From the NCBI GenBank assembly GCA_022653215.1, contig JALCSJ010000001.1, forward strand, positions 1,021-65,020: DNA of 64,000 bases, read 5' to 3'. Position 1 is the stretch's first letter. Every line of letters begins with the position of its first letter. A model generated the notes under the pieces. The model saw only the letters and a list, made by a program, of their open reading frames with translations, ran no database searches and was not told where the DNA came from. Below, piece after piece: positions 3,985 through 50,570 of the stretch. Position numbers and translations under genes: made by a program. This DNA is from Acidaminococcaceae bacterium. Its GTDB lineage: Bacteria > Bacillota > Negativicutes > Acidaminococcales > Acidaminococcaceae.

Positions 3985-4563
3985 TCAGCCCTTTCCATTA
4001 GCATAAGTCTTCATGTAGTGAGCACGCACTTCGTTCAGGCCTTTTACTACAGCCCGGCTTGTGATGGTCGCTGCCGTGATGGCTCTAACATCATTGTCTT
4101 TAGTGGGATCTTGCTTGGTTACGACTAATTCATCTTTCAAAGGCTTGCCTTTGAATTGTGCCTGCCAAGTAGGTTCGGTACTCTTCATACCTAAACCGGG
4201 GGTCTCACTGAGTTTCAGGATTTTAATACCGGTTAATTTATTCTTTTGGTCAATACCAACCATGATGGTCAGTTTTCCGCCGTAACCGGTGGGCTCTACA
4301 GTGTAAATGTAACCATTAGCTTTCCCGCCTTTTTTGGAGCACTGAATGTCAGTGATCAGGCCGCCGGGAGCTTTTTCTTTGGACAATTCTCCCAGTTCAG
4401 GGAAGACTTGTTTGTAAGCTGCTTTAACGTCTGCTGCAGCTCGTGCTGCAATAACGTCTTTGGTGGCAGAGTGTGCATAAGCAACCAGGCCAACGCAGAC
4501 AGCACAGATGATAAGAAGAGTAAGGGTTAATCTGGTAATGAAGCTTGAGTCTTCTTTACTCAT
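3985..4563 (-). CDS. rnfG: Rnf complex subunit G (FMN-binding)
   Basis: N-terminal anchor plus an FMN_bind domain with the flavinylation-type motif AITAATITSRAV. Confidence 0.9.
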   Translation of the reverse strand: MSKEDSSFITRLTLTLLIICAVCVGLVAYAHSATKDVIAARAAADVKAAYKQVFPELGELSKEKAPGGLITDIQCSKKGGKANGYIYTVEPTGYGGKLTIMVGIDQKNKLTGIKILKLSETPGLGMKSTEPTWQAQFKGKPLKDELVVTKQDPTKDNDVRAITAATITSRAVVKGLNEVRAHYMKTYANGKG

Positions 4564-5588
4564 TTCTTAGCACCTCCTCCAAATGTTACGGTGTGAACAT
4601 ACTTATCAATGAAAGGAGTTACCATGTTCATCATCAAGATGGAATAGCAAACGCCTTCAGTGTAGCTGCCACGTAAACGAATCAGAGAAGTTAATACGCC
4701 TAAACCAATAGCATAAATAATTTTGCCTTTTTTGGTAATAGGAGAAGTTACCCAGTCAGTTGCCATAAAGAAAGCACCAATCATCAAACCGCCTGCACAC
4801 AGATGGTACAGAGGGAAAGTGGAAGGATAACCGAAAATCGTACCGTAAATACCGGTTAGAACAGCAACAGTTGCCAGATAAAAAACAGGGATACGCCAAT
4901 CAATTAATTCTTTGTAAATCAGATAAATGCCGCCTAACACCAAAGCGGGAACACAGGTCTCGCCCAAAGAGCCACCTACATTACCTATGAACATATTCAT
5001 AAGAGAAGGAAGCTTGTCAGTAGTAGCAGCACCACCTGCCTGCCAAACAGCTTCGGTAGCACGCATAACAGCCAAAGGAGTTGCAGTAGAAACTGCATCA
5101 GCGCCTTTAGTTACAGCAGCAGTAGCGGGAAGCACCCAGGCAGTCATTTGTTGGGGGAAAGATGCCAGTAAAATGGCACGGCCAATATGAGCAGGGTTAA
5201 AAACATTGCAGCCTAAGCCGCCAAAAATTTGTTTTGCCAGTACAATAGCAAAGAAGGTGCCAACCATAGCCAGACCGGGAGAGAAAGAAGCCGGTAAACA
5301 CATTGCTAATAAAAGTCCGGTTAAAGCTGCACTATAATCACCAATGGTAATTGGTTTGCCCATCACTTTTTCTGCAGCGGCTTCAAAAACTACGGCAGAA
5401 ACAACACAAGTCACCATAACAATAACTGCATCCATACGGAAATAATAAATAGCCGCTAAAATTGCAGGTACCAAAGCAATGATAACATCCCGCATAGCAG
5501 AAGGAATGGTCATATCGCTATGCATATGTGGTGATGAGGACAGGAGAACCAAAGGTTTAGGTTCTTTAATAGGTTCCATAATATTCAT
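4560..5588 (-). CDS. rnfD: Rnf complex subunit D
   Basis: 342-aa polytopic RnfD/NqrB-type protein (FNPAHIGRAILL, MATDWVTSP). Confidence 0.92.
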   Translation of the reverse strand: MNIMEPIKEPKPLVLLSSSPHMHSDMTIPSAMRDVIIALVPAILAAIYYFRMDAVIVMVTCVVSAVVFEAAAEKVMGKPITIGDYSAALTGLLLAMCLPASFSPGLAMVGTFFAIVLAKQIFGGLGCNVFNPAHIGRAILLASFPQQMTAWVLPATAAVTKGADAVSTATPLAVMRATEAVWQAGGAATTDKLPSLMNMFIGNVGGSLGETCVPALVLGGIYLIYKELIDWRIPVFYLATVAVLTGIYGTIFGYPSTFPLYHLCAGGLMIGAFFMATDWVTSPITKKGKIIYAIGLGVLTSLIRLRGSYTEGVCYSILMMNMVTPFIDKYVHTVTFGGGAKK

Positions 5589-40642: not shown

Positions 40643-42037
40643 ATGAGTATTTTAAATAAGATTTTGGCTGTGATTATAGCTGCAACTTTAGGATTGGGAG
40701 CTTATACCTACAAAACTTTGTTTTATGATGATGGGGCCAAGGAAAAAACTGTGGATAAACTGGCCCTTAAAAAGAATATTTTAGTCCTTGGGGTAGATAA
40801 AAGAGAGGGGGATGTAGGCCGCTCCGATACTATGTTCGTAGTTATGTTAGACCCTAAAAACGAAAATATGTCTCTATTATCAATTCCCAGAGATACGATG
40901 GTCCGCATTCCCAACAATGGCTGGAACAAGATTAACCATGCCTATGCATATGGTGGACATAAGCTCAGCGAGCAAACGGTGGAAAATTTTCTGGGCATCA
41001 AAATTAATAACTATGTTTTGATTGATATCAAAGGTTTTGTAGAGCTGGTTGATGCCTTGGGCGGTATTGATATTGACGTAGAAAAAAATATGACCTATTC
41101 TGATCCATATGATGATGGAGCAAACGGACTGGTCATACACCTAAAAAAAGGACTTCAGCATCTTAGCGGTCAGCATGCCATGGAATATGTCCGTTATCGT
41201 GATGAAGAAGGCGATATTGGCAGAATCAAACGCCAGCAAAAGTTTATGAAAGCTGTGTACCAAAAAGCCTTGCAGCCGGAAACAATTTTAAAATTACCGG
41301 CTATCATTAAAAGTATCAGCAAAATGGTTACTACTGATGTGCCGGTAAGTGATATGTTGGCTGTGCTGAAAGCCTTGAAGGGCGGCAGTCAGACCATGGG
41401 AGACTTGAAAATGGCTATGGTACCGGGTCATCCTGCGGACATAGAAGAAATAAATTACTGGATTCCCGATATGGTGGCTTTGCGCTCTGAAATGGTAGCT
41501 ATGCAGGGTGCCACTATGAGCAACAGCTTCAGCTTGGCAGCAACAGCCAGCAAGAGTGAATATGATAGGCTTTTGGGTATGGGAGATAGTAATAAAAACG
41601 GTAAGCAGGTTATTAAAAATCCTAAGTCTAAAGAGCTCCAGGATGCTATCGCAAAAGCTAAAAAGGCCAATGCAGAGGAAATAGCTAAAGCCAAGGCTTT
41701 ACGGCAAAGTACCGCTGAAAATCAAACCGATGCAGATGAACAACCAAAAGCTTCTCAACCGCAGCGTATCAGCCGGGTAAGAGTAAAGGTTGTCAATTGC
41801 ACAGGTTCTCCGGCAGCTTTAAATAAAGCTATAGGCCAGATCAGCAATGCCGGTCTTGTGGTTGTAGGAACAGGAACAGGAGCTAAACGAACTTCTACCC
41901 TTATAGTGGCTACTACGGATAACAGCAGTGCCGTAGGTAAATTTTCTGCTCTATCTTTCCGCTATTTCCTGCGCAGGGATCCAGCGGCTGCCAGCGGTAT
42001 AGAAGGTATTATTTACTTGGGCGAAGACTATTTATAA
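40643..42037 (+). CDS. LCP (LytR-CpsA-Psr) family protein with a C-terminal LytR_C domain
   Basis: N-terminal TM helix, LCP core motifs (RSDTMFVV, LSIPRDT, INHAYAYGG) and a C-terminal VRVKVVNCTGSPAALNKA domain. Confidence 0.88.
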   Translation: MSILNKILAVIIAATLGLGAYTYKTLFYDDGAKEKTVDKLALKKNILVLGVDKREGDVGRSDTMFVVMLDPKNENMSLLSIPRDTMVRIPNNGWNKINHAYAYGGHKLSEQTVENFLGIKINNYVLIDIKGFVELVDALGGIDIDVEKNMTYSDPYDDGANGLVIHLKKGLQHLSGQHAMEYVRYRDEEGDIGRIKRQQKFMKAVYQKALQPETILKLPAIIKSISKMVTTDVPVSDMLAVLKALKGGSQTMGDLKMAMVPGHPADIEEINYWIPDMVALRSEMVAMQGATMSNSFSLAATASKSEYDRLLGMGDSNKNGKQVIKNPKSKELQDAIAKAKKANAEEIAKAKALRQSTAENQTDADEQPKASQPQRISRVRVKVVNCTGSPAALNKAIGQISNAGLVVVGTGTGAKRTSTLIVATTDNSSAVGKFSALSFRYFLRRDPAAASGIEGIIYLGEDYL

Positions 42038-42060
42038 GAAAACTTATTATAATATAAAAA

Positions 42061-42088
42061 ACTACTGCCAATATTTTAAGGCAGTAGT
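42061..42088 (+). terminator. hairpin after the LCP gene
   Basis: ACTACTGCC - 10 nt - GGCAGTAGT. The U run is not immediately adjacent. Confidence 0.5.
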
Positions 42089-42126
42089 AAGACTGTTTTT
42101 AGGATATTTGCGAATTTTCAAAAAAA

Positions 42127-42164
42127 TCTTGAAAATAAAACTTGCACATTGTATACAAAAGTGT
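42127..42164. repeat. attL core (direct repeat, left copy)
   Basis: TCTTGAAAATAAAACTTGCACATTGTATACAAAAGTGT, identical to 46586-46623. Confidence 0.85.
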
Positions 42165-42910
42165 CATAGGGCTTTTGGAGTTGTGATTATATGGTAAAGA
42201 GTGGCATAAACACTAGAAAGTCGAAAAGACATAGAGAGAAACAAAAAGATATAAATAGACAATAAGTTTACGCAAAAGTTGCACAAGAAAATAATTCAAT
42301 ATAGATGTAATCTATCCCCCCGTTAAAAATTGGGGGATATTTTTTATTGGGCGAAAGAGTAAGCAGGAACAATTATTGTTTGTGCGTGGTAGGATATATG
42401 GGTGTATTGATAAAACATACTTATAAGGGAAATATAGTTGTTGGATAAACTTGTTTTCGTAAAGTAAACAAAACATAGCACTCTACGAAACAAGTTTGTA
42501 AACATTGAAACACTTAATCATAAAAAATCCTTGTAATTGTAAAGTTTTGTGGTATACTTTATTTAGACAAGAAAAGAAATAATACATAATGAAAAGCAAA
42601 GAGCAAAACAATTAAGCAGTAACTATTAATTCCGTATGTTAGGTATTGGGTACTATCCAGTATTTAATGATACGGAAAATCTATTCTTAGGGGGTGAAAC
42701 GGAAACTTGTTTCAGATGTAGTAATTAATTGATGGGAAGTTTTGGCGGCAGTATGGAACACGGGCGGTCAGATAGTCGGATAGGGGGGGAGGGGGAAAAA
42801 ACACAAATGGTACTATCTAGACTATATATAAAGAATACTCTTATTTCTCCCGTGTCAGTAATCAAAATAAAAAGGTACTACATAGTATCTTTAGGAGGTG
42901 AAAATATTTT

Positions 42911-43360
42911 TTGGAAAATTTAGAACAAGGGCAAGAAACAATTGAAGTAAAAAAGGAAACACTAGAAGAACAGATTATTAGGAAAGACAAAGAGAGCGAT
43001 AACAAAGACAAAAGAATTAAGTCATTAGAAAAAGAAGTAATGACATTAAAACAAGGCGGTAAGACAGTAAGACCATTTACCAAAGTATTCATTGATACGG
43101 GGGTTGAATTGCTTGATACTCTTTCCTTGCGTGATAGGGGGTTGCTTTACTCTCTAGCGGTACTAGCAAGCCCAAAGGGGTATTTGCAGGACAAAGAAAC
43201 GGGTTGTCAAATAACGTCGTGGCGGCAATTAGGAAAGAATGTAGGTATTAAAGATGTAGGTCATGCCCGTAATATGTTTTTGGACTTTTTAAGTATGGAA
43301 ATAATGACAGAAGATTTTAAGTTAAATTCTAAGTATTTATCAAGAAAACGAAATGCGTAA
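42911..43360 (+). CDS. island protein, unknown family: N-terminal charged coiled-coil + C-terminal possible winged-helix-like domain
   Basis: 149 aa. TTG start 11 nt after AGGAGG. E/K-rich N-terminus, then RPFTKVFIDTGVELLDTLSLRDRGLLYSLAVLA... No motif I can name. Confidence 0.55.
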   Translation: MENLEQGQETIEVKKETLEEQIIRKDKESDNKDKRIKSLEKEVMTLKQGGKTVRPFTKVFIDTGVELLDTLSLRDRGLLYSLAVLASPKGYLQDKETGCQITSWRQLGKNVGIKDVGHARNMFLDFLSMEIMTEDFKLNSKYLSRKRNA

Positions 43361-43560
43361 AAATATACGCAAGTAACGTGTGATTTAAACACCACAAAAA
43401 CGTATTTAAAAGTTTGGTGATTTTTCACACATATCAAACAAGCATAGATGGGGCAAGGGGTTGCAGTAAAAAGGGTTGTTAGTGTTGTACTAGGAAAGAA
43501 TATTTATATAGACTACTCTTTCTATGCCGCCTTTCCCTATCATTATTATGGAGGTCATTG

Positions 43561-43809
43561 ATGGCAAGTAATTTATTAGTAGCAGGAGAATGGAAAAGTA
43601 TTTTACCCGAATGGAATAAGGGTACAGTAGACGTAAGAGTTTATCGCAAGCCTAAAACAACATTGACGGGCGAACGGTATTACCTAGGTATTAGGAACAA
43701 TGTTAGCAAGTCCAATACGGAGGAAATAACTATTCCCTTTGATATACTGGAGGATATTGCCCGTATAGGCAATAAGGAAATAGCCGCCTATCAACAAGGG
43801 CAAATTTAG
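43561..43809 (+). CDS. island protein, unknown function (82 aa)
   Basis: ATG 43561 lies 8 nt after GGAGG. A hairpin follows at ~43815-43855. Confidence 0.5.
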   Translation: MASNLLVAGEWKSILPEWNKGTVDVRVYRKPKTTLTGERYYLGIRNNVSKSNTEEITIPFDILEDIARIGNKEIAAYQQGQI

Positions 43810-43994
43810 GCAAAAAAAAATATCCTACCTGCTTAACACCCCTGTTAGCAGATAGGATAAATAAAAGAGTTTATACAGTTAGCGTGTAGAACACGGCAAG
43901 AAAGAAAACCCTCTCACTATATACAGGAAAACAAGTGCTTTTTATGCAAGGCTATTTTTTCCCTAATACTGTTAATAGCCTCAATTGGAGTTGC

Positions 43995-44186
43995 TTAGTC
44001 TTTTTTCCACAGTAGCCTCTCCCTGTGTCTTTGCAGGGTTTTCATTGAGAGCCATTCTTTTCCTGCTCCGTTCACCCATTCGTATACTTTCTCTATTGGT
44101 ATTTTCTTGTCTTTTAGTAGAAATCGAAGATTAAGTAACCATTCCATTCTGTTTGCTCTCCGTTCCTGTTTCCTTGGCAGTACCAT
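43995..44186 (-). CDS. island small basic protein (63 aa), candidate regulator, divergent from xis-int
   Basis: Basic and helical-looking (KTLQRHRERLLWKK). A 12-bp inverted repeat lies immediately upstream at 44210-44250. RBS is AAGGAG. Confidence 0.45.
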   Translation of the reverse strand: MVLPRKQERRANRMEWLLNLRFLLKDKKIPIEKVYEWVNGAGKEWLSMKTLQRHRERLLWKKD

Positions 44187-44523
44187 TTGTGTTCTCCTTT
44201 ACTAGTAGTTATCCGTGATAGTTCTGTTATTTCATTGTATCACAGATAATCAAGGTCGGATACAGTTAATTAGAATAAATGTTAAAATAGTATGGGGTAA
44301 AAAGTATGGCGGCACTTAAAAGATAGGCAAGGTAATAACTAGGGTGTAGGAATTGCCGTGTAATCACTTATGGTTGAGTTAGTGGCACTTTTTAGCGTGT
44401 TTACATAATGGGTGCAGGGAAACACTAGGGCAACGATAAATAAACATTCACAAGTGAAATTAAGAAGTCTATGAAAGAAGTTTACAGGATTAAATGGCTA
44501 TATAGAGCCGATAGGAGGTATTT

Positions 44524-44877
44524 ATGGTGGTTGGAATTGATAGCGTAATAAATATACATAGTATTGATAAAAACTTAATAAACGAATACAAAGGGATTAT
44601 TACCCAATGTTTTAATAAGGGAACGTATACGGAAAAGAAAGCAAAAAAGAAAAAAGCAGGGTATCAATATTACGATAGAGAGAAAGATTATCAAACTAAA
44701 AAGGGTGTAGCAGAGTATTTCGGAGTTAGCACGAAGACAGTAGAGCGAATGACAAAGCAGGGTTTTTTCAGACCTAGTAATTTCTTAGGCGGCAGAAAGA
44801 AGAGATATAAAACCATAGATATATTAAAACTAGGTAGGCAAAAAGGGGAAGAGTTTAAGCCAATATATAGTAATTAA
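44524..44877 (+). CDS. excisionase/MerR-type HTH domain protein (xis-like)
   Basis: Perfect AGGAGG RBS. The C-terminal KKGVAEYFGVSTKTVERMTKQGFFRP segment resembles an excisionase-family HTH. It lies immediately upstream of int. Confidence 0.6.
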   Translation: MVVGIDSVINIHSIDKNLINEYKGIITQCFNKGTYTEKKAKKKKAGYQYYDREKDYQTKKGVAEYFGVSTKTVERMTKQGFFRPSNFLGGRKKRYKTIDILKLGRQKGEEFKPIYSN

Positions 44878-44987
44878 GTATTATATACTAAATAATATTT
44901 AGCAGTAATAACAAAATTTGACTTTGTATAATAATAGAGGTATAGTATTTATAGCAGGACAAAACAAATAAGAAAGGGGTTTTGATT

Positions 44988-46199
44988 ATGGCAAAGAAAG
45001 CAAAAATTAAATTGTTAAAGAAAAGCGAATTGCCAAAGGGCATAAGACAGAGAAAGGATAGTGGGAAATTTTTCTTTAGATTTAATGCAGATAGGAAAAC
45101 TTATTACAAAGAGTTTGAAACAAAAGAAGAGGCTAGAAAGGGTTATCTTATCGCTAGGGCAGAAGTAGCAGAGGGCAAATATAATAATAGTAAAGTTACT
45201 CTAAACCAATTAATAGAACAAGTCTTAACAATAGATAAAGCAAACGGAACAAGGTGTATTAACTCACTTAAATTACACAACGGGTTTAAAAAGAGTTGTA
45301 TTGAAAATTCCGTAGCATTGAGATTTGGTAAAATCCCCGTAAAAGATATTGAAGTAAAAGAATGTAACAATTGGCTATTAGAACAGTTAAGGTATCACAA
45401 AACAAAGATAGTAAAAGGTAAGACAGTTGATAATGGTAAACTTAGCACCAACACTATTAATAGATATATTGATATGTTAAAGGGCTATCTTAGCAGAGCG
45501 GTTAAATTAGGGTACATACAATATAATCCAATGGAAAGGATAGACCGACCAAAAGCCCAAAAGGTAAACAAAGATAGAGAGGCTTTAACAGATGTAGAGT
45601 TAACAATGTTTCTATCAACTATTAAAGAAAGAAGTCCTAAAGGTTGGGTGATGGCTTTGGCTATGTTAGATACGGGGGCAAGGGTACACGAATGTTTAGG
45701 GCTACAATGGAAGAACATAGATAATGATAGCAGTAAAATAGCCATTGAGGGTCAGTATGACCCAATAACCAAAACGAAAAAAGATATTAAGAACGGAGTT
45801 AAAAGAACGTGGGTAGCAAAGACTAGCACAATAAGAGAATTAATAAATATAAAGCCCGTAAACGCCAATAAAGAGGATTATATATTCAAAGGGTACAAAG
45901 ATAATAGCCCATTAGGTGTAGGGCGTGTAGAGCAAATATTCCGTAGTGTATTTAAGATATGCGGTATTAAGAAAACACCTCACTCTTTAAGGCACACGGG
46001 GGCAACTCTATTGTGGAAAGCAACTGGAGATATTAGGCTAGTTCAGAAATTTCTAGGTCATAAGAATATAGCCACAACGCAAAAGTATATTAATGATAAC
46101 TTTACGGAAGTAAGCAAAGAAGAAACAGAGAGTATAAAGAACGCTTTACCCGATTTCGTGGAGAAGTCCAATCAACCTATTTTAAGAGTAGTAGCATAA
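44988..46199 (+). CDS. int: tyrosine-type site-specific recombinase (integrase)
   Basis: Catalytic signature DTGARVHE (Arg), HSLRHTGATLL (H-x-x-R) and LGHKNIATTQKYI (His/Tyr). N-terminal SAM-like domain. ATG 44988 chosen. Confidence 0.9.
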   Translation: MAKKAKIKLLKKSELPKGIRQRKDSGKFFFRFNADRKTYYKEFETKEEARKGYLIARAEVAEGKYNNSKVTLNQLIEQVLTIDKANGTRCINSLKLHNGFKKSCIENSVALRFGKIPVKDIEVKECNNWLLEQLRYHKTKIVKGKTVDNGKLSTNTINRYIDMLKGYLSRAVKLGYIQYNPMERIDRPKAQKVNKDREALTDVELTMFLSTIKERSPKGWVMALAMLDTGARVHECLGLQWKNIDNDSSKIAIEGQYDPITKTKKDIKNGVKRTWVAKTSTIRELINIKPVNANKEDYIFKGYKDNSPLGVGRVEQIFRSVFKICGIKKTPHSLRHTGATLLWKATGDIRLVQKFLGHKNIATTQKYINDNFTEVSKEETESIKNALPDFVEKSNQPILRVVA

Positions 46200-46213
46200 C
46201 AGGGGGGTGTATC

Positions 46214-46387
46214 GTGTCAAAGGAAATAAAGGTATATGTAAAAGGCGGTTATTATGTAGGGCATAGCGATAAACAAATAAGCAAGAAATTAGAAAAGCAG
46301 TACAGAAAAACAATGAAGAGAGTACACAACGGATTATTAAAGATTTATCAAATAGAAAAAGAAAAGGGGTATATCAAATGTATTTAA
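46214..46387 (+). CDS. island mini-ORF (57 aa), paralog of the next ORF
   Basis: My own translation. GTG start after GGGGGGTG. VSKEIKVYVKGGYYVGHSDKQISKKLEKQYRKTMKRVHNGLLKIYQIEKEKGYIKCI. It is below the ORF-track size cut-off. Confidence 0.4.
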   Translation: MSKEIKVYVKGGYYVGHSDKQISKKLEKQYRKTMKRVHNGLLKIYQIEKEKGYIKCI

Positions 46388-46542
46388 TCAAAACTAATGT
46401 TGATGGTTGTATCGTGGGTAATTATTACGGGGAGGGTTTTAATTCCCTTTTGGCGGCACAAAAGAAACTAAATGAAGTATTAAATGGAGATAGTAAAGCA
46501 AAGATTTACAAGGTAGTGGAGATAGAAAAAAGCGGTAAATAG
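46378..46542 (+). CDS. island mini-ORF (54 aa), paralog of the previous ORF
   Basis: My own translation. The ATG overlaps the previous stop region by 10 nt. MYLIKTNVDGCIVGNYYGEGFNSLLAAQKKLNEVLNGDSKAKIYKVVEIEKSGK. Confidence 0.4.
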   Translation: MYLIKTNVDGCIVGNYYGEGFNSLLAAQKKLNEVLNGDSKAKIYKVVEIEKSGK

Positions 46543-46585
46543 GGGGCAAAGTTACGCAGGAATTTACGCAGAAAAATCCAAAAAG

Positions 46586-46623
46586 TCTTGAAAATAAAAC
46601 TTGCACATTGTATACAAAAGTGT
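46586..46623. repeat. attR core (direct repeat, right copy)
   Basis: Identical to 42127-42164. Confidence 0.85.
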
Positions 46624-46635
46624 TATAATCACCTT

Positions 46636-46686
46636 GTAAGTTAAACAAGCCCCTCATTTGCCCTTTTAATTAAGGGCTTTTTTTTT
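46636..46686 (+). ncRNA. candidate ~50-nt promoter-to-terminator transcript (small RNA or abortive leader)
   Basis: Promoter TTGCAC (46601-46606) - 17 nt - TATAAT (46624-46629). Small hairpin CTTGT..ACAAG, then terminator GCCCTTTTAATTAAGGGC + T9 (46660-46686). The MATE gene has its own promoter downstream. Confidence 0.3.
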
Positions 46687-46703
46687 GCCTGTTTTTGTGG
46701 GGT

Positions 46704-46732
46704 TTGCCCATTAGTAACATATGTGGTAAAAT
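46704..46732 (+). promoter_or_regulatory. sigma70-type promoter of the MATE gene
   Basis: TTGCCC - 17 nt - TAAAAT with an extended -10 TG. Confidence 0.5.
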
Positions 46733-46763
46733 ATTGCAGCGTTTACGTAGAAGAGGTTAATAT

Positions 46764-48182
46764 ATGAAGAATATTAAAAGAACAGATGATAAAAACATTT
46801 TAGGCTATGCGCCTATTAACACACTACTGAAAATGTTTGCCGGCCCGGCAATTATTTCTATGGTGGCTAATGCCCTTTACAATATTGTGGACCAGATTTA
46901 CATTGGTAATTCTGTTGGTTATTTGGGTATAGCCGCTACTACAGTAGCTTTTCCTATTGTGACCATAGTTATGGCCTTGGGAACTTTATTGGGAGTAGGG
47001 GGCAGTGCTTTGGCCGCCATAAAGTTGGGAGAGGAAAAGAAAAAAGATGCAGAAGAAATATTAAACTCTGTGCTGCTGGTAGGCCTTATTTGCAGTACCT
47101 TGATGACTATTGTCGGAGAAATTTTTCTTACGGAGCTTATTACTGCTTTTGGTGCTACAAGCCAGACCTTATTATATAGCAAGCAATATGGTGGGGTTAT
47201 GATTGCTCTGGCACCTATTTCCACCATCATTGGTATTTTGTGCAATATGGCACGGACAGACGGCAGCCCCCAATTAGCTATGCGTGCTTTGGTCGGTGGA
47301 GTTTTGGCCAATGTGGTTTTAGACCCGATTTTCATCTTTGTCTTTCAGTGGGGAGTTTTGGGAGCGGCTTTAGCTACCGCAGCCTCTCAGATCTTTTCTG
47401 CTCTTGTTTTAACCTGGTATTTTAAGTACAGAGGTAAGATGCGTTTTGATTATGAGGATTTTACCAACCCTAATAAGCATTTGGTTAAGCGGGCTATGGC
47501 CATCGGGGCTTCTAGCTGTTTAGTGCAGCTCAGCTCCACGGTTCTGCAAATACTCATGAATAATTCTTTGTTATATTATGGTAATTTGTCTTCAGTAGGA
47601 GGGGATGTGGCTATTGGAGCCGTAGGCATTGTCATGAAAATAAATATGATCTTTATTTCTGTGGCTATTGGCATCGGCATTGGCGCTCAGCCTATTATTG
47701 GCTTTAATAAAGGGGCTGAACATTACGACAGAGTATTAGCTACATACAAGTTGGCGGCTAAATGTGCTACAACTGTCACAACTGTAGGATGGTTGTGCTG
47801 TATGCTGATGCCCCATCTTATTTTAAAAATTTTCGGCAGCAGCAGCGCTCCCGGTTTTCTTGATTTTGCTACTGATGCTATGCGCTGGTTCTTGGGAGCA
47901 GTATTTGTAGCAGGTTTCCAGATTATTTCTACAGGGTATTTCCAGGCTACAGGACAACCATTTAAAGCATCTGTTTTATCCATGATGCGTCAATTCATTC
48001 TTTTGGTTCCTTTGATTTTAATTTTGCCCATGTACTTTGGTTTATATGGCATTGTTTATGCAGGGGCAGTAGCTGATGTAATAGCTGCGGCAACAATTGC
48101 AATTTTTATGCATAAAGAAGTTCATAAATTAAAAGCTTTAATCGCTGCCGGAAAATCATCCCTGGCAGTTAAGGCAGAATAA
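46764..48182 (+). CDS. MATE family efflux transporter
   Basis: 472 aa, 12-TM architecture, MATE N-terminal signature (PAIISMVANALYNIVDQIYIG). Confidence 0.88.
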   Translation: MKNIKRTDDKNILGYAPINTLLKMFAGPAIISMVANALYNIVDQIYIGNSVGYLGIAATTVAFPIVTIVMALGTLLGVGGSALAAIKLGEEKKKDAEEILNSVLLVGLICSTLMTIVGEIFLTELITAFGATSQTLLYSKQYGGVMIALAPISTIIGILCNMARTDGSPQLAMRALVGGVLANVVLDPIFIFVFQWGVLGAALATAASQIFSALVLTWYFKYRGKMRFDYEDFTNPNKHLVKRAMAIGASSCLVQLSSTVLQILMNNSLLYYGNLSSVGGDVAIGAVGIVMKINMIFISVAIGIGIGAQPIIGFNKGAEHYDRVLATYKLAAKCATTVTTVGWLCCMLMPHLILKIFGSSSAPGFLDFATDAMRWFLGAVFVAGFQIISTGYFQATGQPFKASVLSMMRQFILLVPLILILPMYFGLYGIVYAGAVADVIAAATIAIFMHKEVHKLKALIAAGKSSLAVKAE

Positions 48183-48236: not shown

Positions 48237-50420
48237 TTATTGTTTTTTGGGTGCTTGGGCCTTCTTTAGACTTAAGCCAATCCGATTACGTTTCTCATCA
48301 ATGCTGATAATAATAGGCTCAATAATATCGCCTACTGATACTACATCCAGAGGATGCTTAAAATATTTATTGCTTAATTCCGATTTGTGAATAAGGCCGC
48401 TGACTTTCAGGCCAATATCCACAAACACACCGAAATCAACTACATTTTGCACTCTGCCTTTTACTTTGGTGCCAATGGTTAAATCAGACAACTTAGTTAC
48501 ATTTTTTCGGCTCAAAGGAGCAGGAGAATCTTCTCTGGGGTCTCTGCCCGGTTTGGCCAAGGCTTGAAGAATATCAGTTACAGTAGGCAGGCCTGCCTGC
48601 AGCTTATCTGCTAATTCTTTGGGATTGGCTTTGGCTGCGGCAATTTGCACAGCAGCGGTGCTTTGAGAGAATTGGGTCAAAGAAAAGCCTAATTCTTTTA
48701 AAATAGCTTCAGCCAAAGGATAACTTTCCGGATGGACGGAAGTATTGTCCAAAGGATTTGCACCATTTAAAATTCGCAGGAAACCGGCACACTGAGTGAA
48801 AGCAGCAGGCCCTAAACGAGATACTTTTAACAATTCTTTCCTGCTTTTAAAACAGCCTGTTTCTGTCCGATAAGTAATAATGTTTTTGGCTACAGGCTTG
48901 CTGATACCTGCTACATAGGTTAAAAGGGAAGCGGAAGCAGTGTTTAATTCCACGCCTACATGGTTAACACAGGATTCTACTACAGTACCCAGCGTTCCGG
49001 TAAGCTCTTTTTGATTAACGTCATGCTGGTATTGTCCGACACCGATGGCTTTAGGCTCAATTTTAACAAGTTCTGCCAGGGGATCCTGAACTCTGCGGGC
49101 AATAGAAACAGCTCCGCGCAAAGTCAGATCCAGATCAGGCATTTCTTCTCTGGCCAGTTTGGAAGCGGAGTACACAGAGGCACCTGCTTCACTGGTAATT
49201 ACATAGGACATATTCAATTTGTATTTTTCAATCATCTTGGCGGTAAATTCTTCTGTTTCATAAGAAGCAGTACCATTGCCAATGGAGGCTAACGTCACAT
49301 GATATTTAGTGACTAAGTCCACAAAAGTTTTTTCTGACAGTTCATACTGTCTTTCGCTGGTAGTTACATTGATGACAGCTGTTGCCAAAACGGTTCCCTG
49401 GGGATTAACTACAGCACATTTACAGCCGGTGCGGTAGCCCGGGTCCATACCAAGAACCGTATGACCGCCTAAAGGCTGTTGCAGAAGTAATTGTCTTAAA
49501 TTAACTGCAAAAACAGAAATGGCCTGTTTCTCGGCTTTTTCTGTTAATTCATTGCGGATTTCTCTTTCAATAGCAGGGAAAATTAACCGTTTATAGGAAT
49601 CTTCCAGAGCAGTTTTATACATTTCCGTAAAGGTGCCTACCGGTTTAATTCCTACTTTCCGTCCAATAATATTATATATAGCATCTCCGGGCAGAACTAA
49701 TTTTACCTTTAGCATATCCTTAGTTTCACCGCGGTTTAAAGCCAAAATACGATGGGGAGGGAGCTGTCTGATAGGTTCAGAATAATCTTTGTACATTAAG
49801 AAGTCTTGGCCTGTAGTTTCATCAGCAGTTAATTCACTGGCTAATTCTGCATTGCGCCACATTTCTTTTCTCACAAGATCTCTTATATCGGCGCGGTCAG
49901 AAAGATTTTCTGCTACTATATCCATAGCACCCTGCCAAGCTTCTTCTGTGGTTTTTACCTCTTTTTCTTCATTTAGGTAGTCTTGTGCTAATTCTTCCAG
50001 ACTAACTTTAGGTTCTTCTTGAGCCATAATAAATTGTGCTAAAGGTTCTAAACCTTTTTCCTTGGCAATAGTGGCTCTGGTACGTTTCTTTTGCTTGTAT
50101 GGAAGATATAAATCTTCAAGTTCTTGAAGCTTTGTGGTAGCATTTATAGCTGCGCTCAATTCCGGAGTAAGTTTTCCCTGACCGTCAATAGATGCCAGCA
50201 CTTCTGCCCGTCTTTGTGCTAAACTGCGCAAATATTGAGCTCTTTCGCTGACATTTCTTATTTGTTCTTCATCTAAAGAACCTGTTACTTCTTTTCTGTA
50301 ACGGGCTACAAAAGGAATAGTGTTGCCCTCGTCCAAAAGTGTCAGAGTAGCAGAAACTTTTCCTGCGGGTATCTGCAGTTCTTTAGCAATAATAGGGGAA
50401 ATAATATTAATGTCTTCCAT
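48237..50420 (-). CDS. tex: Tex-like RNA-binding transcription accessory protein (YqgF/HhH/S1 domains)
   Basis: Full-length Tex similarity with a C-terminal S1 domain (GTKVKGRVQNVVDFGVFVDIG). Start set at MEDINIISPI (50420). The 45-codon ORF-track extension runs through the fur promoter. Confidence 0.9.
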   Translation of the reverse strand: MEDINIISPIIAKELQIPAGKVSATLTLLDEGNTIPFVARYRKEVTGSLDEEQIRNVSERAQYLRSLAQRRAEVLASIDGQGKLTPELSAAINATTKLQELEDLYLPYKQKKRTRATIAKEKGLEPLAQFIMAQEEPKVSLEELAQDYLNEEKEVKTTEEAWQGAMDIVAENLSDRADIRDLVRKEMWRNAELASELTADETTGQDFLMYKDYSEPIRQLPPHRILALNRGETKDMLKVKLVLPGDAIYNIIGRKVGIKPVGTFTEMYKTALEDSYKRLIFPAIEREIRNELTEKAEKQAISVFAVNLRQLLLQQPLGGHTVLGMDPGYRTGCKCAVVNPQGTVLATAVINVTTSERQYELSEKTFVDLVTKYHVTLASIGNGTASYETEEFTAKMIEKYKLNMSYVITSEAGASVYSASKLAREEMPDLDLTLRGAVSIARRVQDPLAELVKIEPKAIGVGQYQHDVNQKELTGTLGTVVESCVNHVGVELNTASASLLTYVAGISKPVAKNIITYRTETGCFKSRKELLKVSRLGPAAFTQCAGFLRILNGANPLDNTSVHPESYPLAEAILKELGFSLTQFSQSTAAVQIAAAKANPKELADKLQAGLPTVTDILQALAKPGRDPREDSPAPLSRKNVTKLSDLTIGTKVKGRVQNVVDFGVFVDIGLKVSGLIHKSELSNKYFKHPLDVVSVGDIIEPIIISIDEKRNRIGLSLKKAQAPKKQ

Positions 50421-50518
50421 AAATTTGAACCTCTTTCTTAAAAATAAAGTTACATTGGCTATTATACTACCCTCGAGGGTTTTAAAGCAAGATTTTGTAT
50501 CCGGGCTAAAGTAGACTA

Positions 50519-50548
50519 TTGACATTAAGGATATTACAATAGTATAAT
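50519..50548 (+). promoter_or_regulatory. sigma70-type promoter of the fur-family gene
   Basis: TTGACA - 18 nt - TATAAT. Confidence 0.55.
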
Positions 50549-50550
50549 GT

Positions 50551-50570
50551 AACAAATAATTATTATTGTT
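50551..50570. promoter_or_regulatory. Fur-family 7-1-7-like operator
   Basis: AACAAATAATTATTATTGTT contains the perfect palindrome AATAAT-T-ATTATT (50555-50567), starting 3 nt after the -10. Confidence 0.5.

Follow-up and report, generated by a model that had tools for sequence, protein, structure and literature searches.

A compact, probably helper-dependent integrative element at a promoter-like target site in an Acidaminococcaceae bacterium

Overall organization of the locus

The stretch of DNA analyzed here (the window) comprises 64 kb of contig JALCSJ010000001.1 from a gut-type bacterium of the Acidaminococcaceae. It contains an integrative element of 4,459 bp, counted between the starts of its two attachment (att) copies, with seven genes. 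The element is inserted between an LCP gene and a MATE gene and is present only in some strains. Its features are listed in Table 1. All open reading frames (ORFs) named in the original prediction were found, i.e. those of the integrase, of a helix-turn-helix (HTH) protein and of proteins with 149, 82, 63, 57 and 54 aa. The integrase is the only product longer than 150 aa, and all genes except ORF63 share the same orientation. The G+C content is 0.30–0.38 inside the element and 0.39–0.47 in the flanks, in agreement with the A+T-richer DNA described before. No tRNA gene is present in the 64-kb window and no Rfam family was found on either strand of the region 41900-46900. The registers of the att sites, promoters and arm-type sites were partly read directly from the sequence.

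Attachment sites and strand exchange

The 38-mer TCTTGAAAATAAAACTTGCACATTGTATACAAAAGTGT is present in exactly two copies in the window, which form attL and attR at the claimed positions. Inspected as a possible dispersed repeat, it has no additional copy in the window with three or fewer mismatches, and none is expected by chance. The weaker similarity described for about 25 nt further left holds only in part. Ungapped similarity extends over 51 nt with 94% identity (42118-42168 and 46577-46627), whereas it becomes marginal more than about 9 nt to the left (by eye, 11 of 25 positions).

The perfect 38-bp repeat is a property of the window assembly. In the other copies the true identity of attP and attB comprises 30 nt with one C/T mismatch, and 17 nt of it are perfect (ATTGTATACAAAAGTGT). 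The host-side copy (attB and left of attL) invariably reads ...TCTTGAAAATAAAACTTGCAC and the element-side copy (attP and left of attR in eight samples) invariably ...GTCTGAAAACGTAGGCTACAAGCCAACCGCAAATAAAACTTGCAT. In the contig containing attP and in eight other samples, whose elements have an identity of at least 99.8%, the element-side copy reads ...GTCTGAAAACGTAGGCTACAAGCCAACCGCAAATAAAACTTGCATATTGTATACAAAAGTGT. To the left of attL the flank is identical to that of the empty sites, and the C at position 42147 is the attB allele in all attL and attB copies. Directly after the 17-mer of attL, the element-specific sequence CATAGGG... begins. Because the C/T base never changes sides, strand exchange is located inside the 17-nt segment. 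A plausible recombination core is CACATT / GTATACA / AAAGTG, with imperfect inverted arms and a 7-bp overlap.

All other attR and attP copies contain 23 extra nucleotides (a stretch of the CGTAGGCTACAAGCCAACCGCAA type) and have TTGCAT in place of TTGCAC. Within 46577-46606, the attR of the window is the sole copy with the host-type 21 nt and without the element-specific stretch of 23 nt, and for this reason the repeat of the window is a perfect 38-mer. The host-type sequence may result from a real conversion or deletion, or it may be a consensus artefact of a mixed population of empty and occupied sites.

Empty sites, occupied sites and the attP junction

For a survey of the insertion site, contigs encoding exactly the same MATE and LCP proteins were looked up. 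The empty LCP-MATE site with a single att copy is found in 11 samples (L002-L005, L007, L008, L063, L064, L066-L068), and the occupied site in eight samples of the same species. Exactly as predicted, the empty site consists of the LCP terminator, a single copy of the repeat, TATAAT and the MATE gene. In the alignment the insertion is clean, with the empty site matching the sequence left of attL on its left side and the sequence right of attR on its right side. Copies of the element in more than ten samples are at least 99.8% identical.

The proposed check for an excised form led to contig L055 (Logan SRR35550244_11695, 1,743 nt). This contig runs from a partial ORF57 and ORF54 through ...CCGCAAATAAAACTTGCATATTGTATACAAAAGTGT joined to CATAGGGCTTTTGG... 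into the arm and ORF149, which is the attP junction. The element thus exists as an excised circle or as a tandem copy. Accordingly, attB, attL, attR and attP junctions are all present in public assemblies. The junctions comprise the types BB, BP and PB and one PP contig (L055), and the C/T base segregates perfectly among them.

Several contigs terminate at the att sites. Contig L065 stops at the last base of the shared att segment, L052 and L014 begin 13 nt ahead of it, and L054 begins just past the C/T position. Judging from the behaviour of assemblies, contig ends at such branch points of a de Bruijn graph would indicate mixtures of attB and attL or of attL and attP within samples. Contig L014 (4,525 nt) was considered as a circular form. 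It begins inside attL and stops in the flank of attR and thus corresponds to the integrated form.

The empty sites and the attP contig support the view of an integrative element with att repeats at its boundaries. It is an active site-specific element with its own tyrosine integrase, whose target and exchange segment are located to within 17 nt.

The target site

The empty site reads TTGCAC, the 17-nt segment and TATAAT. The 17-mer is exactly the spacer between the -35 and -10 hexamers. This register was read by eye; the promoter scan returned TGCACA-16-TATAAT (46602-46629). The arrangement TTGCAC-17-TATAAT of attB would be a functional host promoter. Upon insertion, the TTGCAT hexamer of the element and the DNA upstream of it would join the host -10 hexamer at attR and rebuild the promoter, so that the insertion would be cheap for the host. 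At attL the host -35 hexamer faces CATAGG and is presumably dead. The sequence from the -10 hexamer to the intrinsic terminator is identical in the empty sites.

The promoter of attB would give a transcript of only about 50 nt, which contains the hairpin CTTGTAAGTTAAACAAG and the intrinsic terminator and ends ahead of the MATE promoter. No Rfam match was obtained for it. This transcript may act as a small RNA or as a leader of the attenuator type. The promoter spacer also holds the perfect palindrome TTGTATACAA, which could double as an operator.

Table 1. Coordinates of the att sites, genes and non-coding features of the element and its target site (window numbering).
Feature	Position	Strand	Description
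attL	42127-42164	+	Host-type left part 42127-42147 ending in -35 TTGCAC, then ATTGTATACAAAAGTGT 42148-42164
Candidate arm-type Int site, P' arm	42267-42274	+	TTTACGCA; followed by degenerate second copy AAGTTGCACAA
Terminator-like hairpin	42317-42345	+	CCCCCG...TGGGGG, then T-run; conserved in L011 and L049 despite different bases in stem and loop
Palindrome AAACwwGTTT, two copies	42447-42456, 42488-42497		Just upstream of P1
Promoter-like site P1	42531-42558	+	TTGTAA, 16 nt, TATACT; TG extension
Palindrome, third copy	42703-42712		AAACTTGTTT; in leader
Conserved non-coding block, ~190 nt	42718-42910	+	Immediately upstream of ORF149
ORF149	42911-43360	+	Core gene; predicted N-terminal coiled coil and C-terminal helical domain resembling a winged helix
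ORF82	43561-43809	+	Core gene; predicted three beta-strands, then helix
Structured block	43810-43960	-	Two predicted hairpins and U-run; after ORF82
ORF63	43995-44186	-	Basic, 63 aa; variable slot, divergent from xis/int
HTH_17 / excisionase-type protein	44524-44877	+	117 aa; PF12728, 2.3e-6
Promoter-like site upstream of int	44918-44946	+	TTGACT, 17 nt, TATAGT; 10/12 matches
Tyrosine integrase	44988-46199	+	403 aa; PF00589, 3.7e-26; phrog_1, 2.4e-54
ORF57	46214-46387	+	Small basic protein; JGI name on a cluster member
ORF54	46378-46542	+	Core gene; 74% identical in L011
Candidate arm-type Int sites, P arm	46552-46570	+	Two direct TTACGCAG repeats, 11 nt apart
attR	46586-46623	+	-35 hexamer 46601-46606; exchange segment = promoter spacer 46607-46623
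Host side of target	46624-46686	+	-10 TATAAT 46624-46629, short hairpin, intrinsic terminator 46660-46686
MATE promoter-like site	46704-46732		Downstream of the terminator 46660-46686

Related elements and cassette exchange

The suggested search for the same gene set in other genomes yielded a relative that has the core genes. The closest relative of ORF149, P0002, is encoded on L011 (Logan SRR32022294), a contig of 7.6 kb in which a related element adjoins an ABC-transporter operon. The order of its parts (arm, ORF149-like, ORF82-like, leftward genes, HTH_17, int, ORF54-like) is that of the window. The core genes are shared, with identities of 73% for ORF149, 85% for ORF82 and 74% for ORF54, whereas the integrase (29%), the xis product (22%) and the insertion site differ. 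The contig includes neither the att site nor the right junction of its element.

In the variable slot of L011 (4404-5438), a 249-aa protein with a faint match to the FEKKY domain (E = 0.026) and an acidic 79-aa coiled-coil protein are encoded. No family was assigned to either of them. These genes may be cargo or accessory genes.

A second variant, L049 (Logan ERR13731072), shares the att core, the arm (69% identical) and ORF82 (88%). At positions 828-1497 of this contig, ORF149 is cut after five codons (MENLE*) and is followed by a gene for a protein of 209 aa with a coiled coil and HTH-like features. This positional analogue has weak matches to HTH_36 and Crp-type HTH domains. Its comparison with ORF149 by hhalign was not significant (probability 1.7%).

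In the third variant, L050 (Logan SRR34068992), the element is 99.6–99.9% identical to the window copy except for ORF82. Here ORF82 is precisely swapped as a cassette (4229-4570) for a homologue of 28% identity whose N-terminus has an additional coiled coil.

The element thus evolves by exchange of cassettes, which affects int/xis, ORF149, ORF82 and the leftward slot, whereas the non-coding scaffold around them is conserved. Across the variants, the conserved core consists of the promoter with a constrained leader of 190 nt, ORF149, ORF82, the structured block of the minus strand and ORF54. The family is rare, and about 15 billion proteins yielded no more than three or four variants.

Integrase, HTH_17 protein and candidate arm-type sites

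The integrase was described as a full-length tyrosine recombinase with an intact R/HxxR/H/Y signature. The match to PF00589 is nearly complete (profile positions 26-170 of 172), and the motifs ARV, HSLRH, GH and QKY are visible in the translation. The closest integrase in GenBank phages is only 27% identical.

Directly upstream of int, the predicted excisionase-like gene encodes a protein that matches HTH_17 as well as the MerR-like and excisionase families of PHROGs (1e-5). The match to the NCBIfam model TIGR01764 'excise' is weak (0.012). The protein matches HTH_17 and not Phage_AlpA, but the fold class is the same as that of AlpA. It is a candidate for the recombination directionality factor (RDF), i.e. 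the excision factor. The block 44887-45004, which includes the promoter-like site upstream of int, is conserved in L011 despite the different int genes.

Repeats of TTACGCA on either side of attP are candidates for the arm-type sites of the integrase. In the P arm, the first repeat reads GTTACGCAG from 46552 (a variant, GTTACGCA, read by eye) and the second is TTTACGCA at 46563. There are six copies of TTTACGCA in the 64 kb, compared with 2.9 expected, and those at 42267 and 46563 adjoin the att sites. L011 and L049 have triplicated repeats of their own at the position equivalent to TTTACGCA of the window. In L049, three tandem AAATTGCAAGT repeats are present there. In L011, three AGTCCCACrG repeats are found near the left end of the element (2513-2591), and these are likely arm-type sites for its different integrase.

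The small proteins

The original prediction could not assign the small ORFs to any family. This holds for the variants as well, since no match was found in Pfam, PHROGs, NCBIfam or PADLOC. Comparison with PHROGs and phage records revealed no phage module among them either. ORF149, ORF82 and ORF54 are real genes under purifying selection, with dN/dS values between the window and L011 of 0.27, 0.13 and 0.16, respectively.

Among 5.8e9 clustered proteins, ORF149 has a single close relative, P0002, with an identity of 78% as aligned and of 73% according to BLASTP. A distant relative, P0003 (43%), was the only addition from an exhaustive HMMER scan of 1.84e9 representatives. In total, about 15 billion proteins contain just two relatives of ORF149 that are not identical to it. 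The predicted secondary structure consists of a long helix, followed by a helix, short strands and two helices. From the sequence pattern and the predicted helices, ORF149 is likely a coiled coil with a winged-helix-like domain. ORF82 has relatives in one cluster (P0005, 88%). It is 85–88% identical in L011 and L049, with dN/dS of 0.12–0.13. The AF2 models of ORF149 and ORF82 have low confidence (pLDDT 52 and 44, respectively), and the Foldseek results derived from them were disregarded for this reason.

ORF63 has a strong ribosome-binding site (AAGGAG, 8 nt ahead of the ATG). It is missing from L011, where the unrelated genes for the 79-aa and 249-aa proteins occupy the slot. ORF57 is also missing from L011. 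JGI calls a member of its cluster 'RNA polymerase sigma24 family protein' and there is a weak PADLOC match (0.0026), but no Pfam model reaches significance. The sequence pattern is similar to an HTH of the sigma-region-4 or LuxR-like type, which ORF57 may contain.

The non-coding arm and the structured block

The arm between attL and ORF149 had been described as a repeat-rich, non-coding region of 750 bp. A stretch of 746 nt (42165-42910) is indeed without a conserved ORF, but 'repeat-rich' is overstated. The clearest repeat is the 10-bp palindrome AAACwwGTTT, which occurs three times. Of five perfect copies in the whole window, three are in the arm, and their positions and spacing are kept in L011 and L049. 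The promoter-like site P1 is conserved in L011 (TTGCAA...TGTGGTAGAAT) and in L049. The terminator-like hairpin upstream of it would shield the element from transcription entering via att.

The block of about 190 nt ahead of ORF149 is 80% identical to L011, compared with 44–63% at synonymous sites of the neighbouring genes. This block may serve as an RNA leader or act in cis at the DNA level (a candidate ori, pac or oriT). An RNA structure of this leader is not supported (fold z = -1.2, pairs invariant). An ORF of 64 aa at 42729-42923 is missing from both L011 and L049 and was therefore not accepted as a gene.

The structured block on the minus strand after ORF82 has a fold z of -3.4 and five compensatory pairs among the three sequences. 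Its identity to L011 and L049 (75–81%) is above that of synonymous sites (44–63%), and it is kept in all three variants although the leftward gene upstream of it differs. No Rfam family was found for it. The block would be the terminator and 3' region of the leftward transcript, or a candidate small RNA.

A perfect inverted repeat of 15 nt (AACACAAATGGTACT) connects the positions 42800-42814 and 44179-44193. It is not conserved in L011 and L049. The translation-initiation region of ORF63 is duplicated in the leader of ORF149, and both mRNAs would share 15 nt around an AUG. The repeat may be the scar of a recombination event or a regulatory site that both have in common.

Database searches and surroundings

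Families of replication, relaxase, coupling, capsid, terminase, lysis or defence proteins were not found for any ORF or variant in Pfam, PHROGs, NCBIfam and PADLOC. Specifically, no element ORF matches a primase or Rep (Pfam, PHROGs, NCBIfam), and no relaxase, MOB or T4CP family was found (Pfam, NCBIfam). The original prediction that replication, conjugation, packaging, lysis and cargo genes are lacking agrees with the searches in Pfam, PHROGs and NCBIfam. Matches in PHROGs are confined to the integrase and the HTH protein.

No DNA or protein match was obtained in 72,556 plasmid records, and sequence searches of the PDB with the element proteins were negative. A scan of genome contigs with the integrase returned only an unrelated, 26%-identical integrase of a Kapaibacterium. 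Scans of metagenome contigs with the ORF82 profile and with the attL/attP DNA pattern gave no match. Twenty-seven viral contigs matched a conserved 16-mer, but according to blastn and tblastn all of these matches are due to chance.

The neighbours of the element and ten sampled ORFs are housekeeping genes, and the same was concluded for the rest of the window and the 10-kb flanks. One of the genes nearby, a Tex-like gene (48237-50555, minus strand), is a 772-aa ORF starting with TTG, for which gene callers elsewhere give 727 aa. In L002 this gene is split into three ORFs, which suggests frameshifts or assembly errors there.

Interpretation of the element

The findings are best explained by a living, non-autonomous, i.e. 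helper-dependent, integrative element that represents a new and rare family. A probability of about 0.75 is assigned to this interpretation. The 403-aa integrase would integrate the element, the HTH_17 protein would act as the excision factor and arm-type sites would flank attP. After excision, the core would allow a helper to copy and carry the circle.

The route of transfer is a separate question. By analogy to chromosomal minimalist islands inducible by phages (PICMIs) and virion-encapsidated integrative mobile elements (VEIMEs), the element might be a phage satellite that travels as concatemers in full-size helper capsids. This is the favoured but tentative proposal, with slightly less than even odds. 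In that case, ORF149 and ORF82 would act as regulatory or specificity factors linking the element to its helper. Swaps of specificity-type genes in otherwise nearly identical backbones, i.e. of ORF149 in L049 and of ORF82 in L050, count in favour of the interpretation as a whole.

Several points weigh against this interpretation and its satellite step in particular. Apart from the matches of the integrase and the HTH protein, no gene of the element resembles a phage or satellite gene, and 50,697 phage records contain no match at the DNA or protein level (tblastn included). In IMG/VR, the integrase, the profiles of ORF149 and ORF82 and a conserved pattern of 22 nt are all without a match. Unlike PICMIs and most satellites, the element has no primase or Rep, and no pac or cos site can be named. 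A helper prophage or integrative and conjugative element (ICE) is not present in the window. Both the arm-type sites and the function of the HTH_17 protein as RDF are inferences, and the low pLDDT values of ORF149 and ORF82, together with the negative hhalign comparison of ORF149 and its analogue, offer little structural support. Furthermore, the evidence for attP is one contig of 1.7 kb from a single run, which is compatible with a free circle and a tandem insertion alike.

A bolder version is that ORF149, ORF82 and ORF54 form a complete new 'hitching' module together with the leader and the minus-strand RNA. Proteins of only 54–149 aa would then replicate the circle of 4.5 kb and/or load it into the transfer machinery of a helper in Negativicutes. 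If it were true, no smaller protein-coding family of integrative satellites or hitchers would be known in Firmicutes, and the family would be made of wholly new protein families with exchangeable integrases. This version is rather doubtful.

Conjugative transfer is an unlikely alternative to packaging. The element would then be an integrative mobilizable element (IME) of the oriT-only type (iOriT), in which, after excision by Int and Xis, the relaxase of a co-resident ICE or plasmid nicks a mimic of its oriT in the arm, and ORF149 or ORF82 would be a relaxosome accessory or regulatory protein. Such elements are a recognised class (PMC11389934). The gene content fits, as no relaxase, coupling protein or phage gene is present and all genes but one are co-oriented. 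The same applies to the arm, whose ~750 nt are non-coding and partly constrained and include conserved palindromes as well as inverted repeats, and to the absence of the family from the viral collections searched. On the other hand, no similarity to plasmid DNA or proteins was found, no nic-site motif can be named and the window contains no conjugative element. The swapping of ORF149 and ORF82 cassettes is more typical of the arms races of phage satellites, although this is a weak argument.

An integrative mini-replicon is improbable, but it could be combined with either helper route. ORF149, with a coiled coil and a winged helix like those of small plasmid initiators, would be an initiator that binds sites in the arm for plasmid-like replication of the circle, the minus-strand RNA would be an antisense regulator of copy number and spread would be passive (transformation, vesicles or generalised transduction). 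The constrained non-coding block and the conserved promoter upstream of ORF149 are consistent with this, as are the conserved, terminator-ended RNA-like element and the weak HTH_36 and Crp-type HTH matches of the analogue in L049. A contig that runs through attP, such as L055, is expected if the free form is abundant. However, the palindromes persist unchanged in L049, in which the 209-aa analogue replaces ORF149, and thus they are unlikely to be iterons of ORF149. In addition, ORF149 with 149 aa is below the size of known initiators, has no match to a Rep family and yields a poor structural model.

A decaying, fixed and immobile remnant of a prophage or ICE, which the original prediction had allowed and which would account for the very small size, the lack of cargo and int/xis as the sole module, is essentially excluded by purifying selection (all ORFs intact, dN/dS 0.13–0.27), by presence/absence polymorphism with precise empty sites among strains with identical MATE and LCP proteins and by the attP junction; moreover, this compact arrangement is found again at a different site and with a different integrase, and copies in more than ten samples are at least 99.8% identical.

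For many genomic islands the route of transfer is not known, and the number of small helper-dependent 'hitchers' is believed to be greatly underestimated. With 4.46 kb, seven genes, four documented att forms and natural swap variants of ORF149 and ORF82, the element is tractable and could reveal the minimum that is required beyond int/xis for persistence and spread. Targeting of a promoter spacer, combined with an own -35 hexamer, would be a low-cost strategy of insertion that is unlike the usual tRNA targets. The wider importance is limited by the rarity of the element.

Comparison with known systems

PICMIs of Vibrionaceae are about 6 kb in size and are packaged as 8-mers (PMC10803314). The element resembles them in its small size (4.46 kb), about six genes, a tyrosine integrase with a small HTH protein as putative excision factor, large non-coding stretches, variable small genes without assigned function and the lack of capsid and packaging genes. 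However, PICMIs are defined by int, alpA and a primase, and the element has neither a primase nor a match to the AlpA family. There is no sequence similarity, the host is a diderm Firmicute (Negativicutes) and the target site is different.

The marine VEIMEs, with monomers between less than 5 kb and 16.8 kb in size, lack capsid genes and are packaged in the form of concatemers (PMC9618062). Overlapping size, an integrase, missing capsid genes and a presumed dependence on a helper are common to both. VEIMEs are defined by concatemers inside virions, whereas the element has no relative in IMG/VR. Except for a generic integrase, no genes are shared.

With the iOriT class, IMEs without a relaxase, the element has in common an integration/excision module, the lack of transfer genes and the dependence on a helper for movement between cells. 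On the other hand, no oriT was recognised in the element and no similarity to plasmids or ICEs was found for it.

In its mode of action, the element is comparable to an int-xis module of the lambda or Tn916 type joined to a minimalist hitcher. Common features are the xis-int order, an integrase of ~400 aa with an N-terminal extension, arm-like repeats around attP and a crossover inside a short segment of identity. Unlike these modules, the element targets the spacer between -35 and -10 of a promoter and not a tRNA gene or the 3' end of a gene, and it replaces the -35 hexamer together with the upstream half of the promoter.

Other classes differ more clearly. Phage-inducible chromosomal islands (PICIs, SaPI-type) have a master repressor, pri-rep and terS/cpm/ppi and a size of 10–15 kb; none of these genes is matched by Pfam or PHROGs in the 4.46 kb of the element. 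No match was found either for the relaxase or coupling protein of iMOB IMEs (Pfam and NCBIfam) or for the capsid or coat, packaging or morphogenesis and initiator genes of prophages, including ssDNA and filamentous ones (PHROGs, and tblastn against phages). Integrative mobile elements exploiting Xer (IMEX) have no recombinase of their own and integrate at dif, whereas the element has its own integrase and a promoter-spacer target.

Judged by its gene content, the element is placed outside the PICMI, PICI, iMOB IME, prophage and IMEX classes. Its size is not unprecedented, and small helper-dependent integrative elements are already known. What is new is the gene set of three orphan families under selection together with constrained non-coding elements, the host clade (Negativicutes) and the promoter-spacer target with repair of the promoter.

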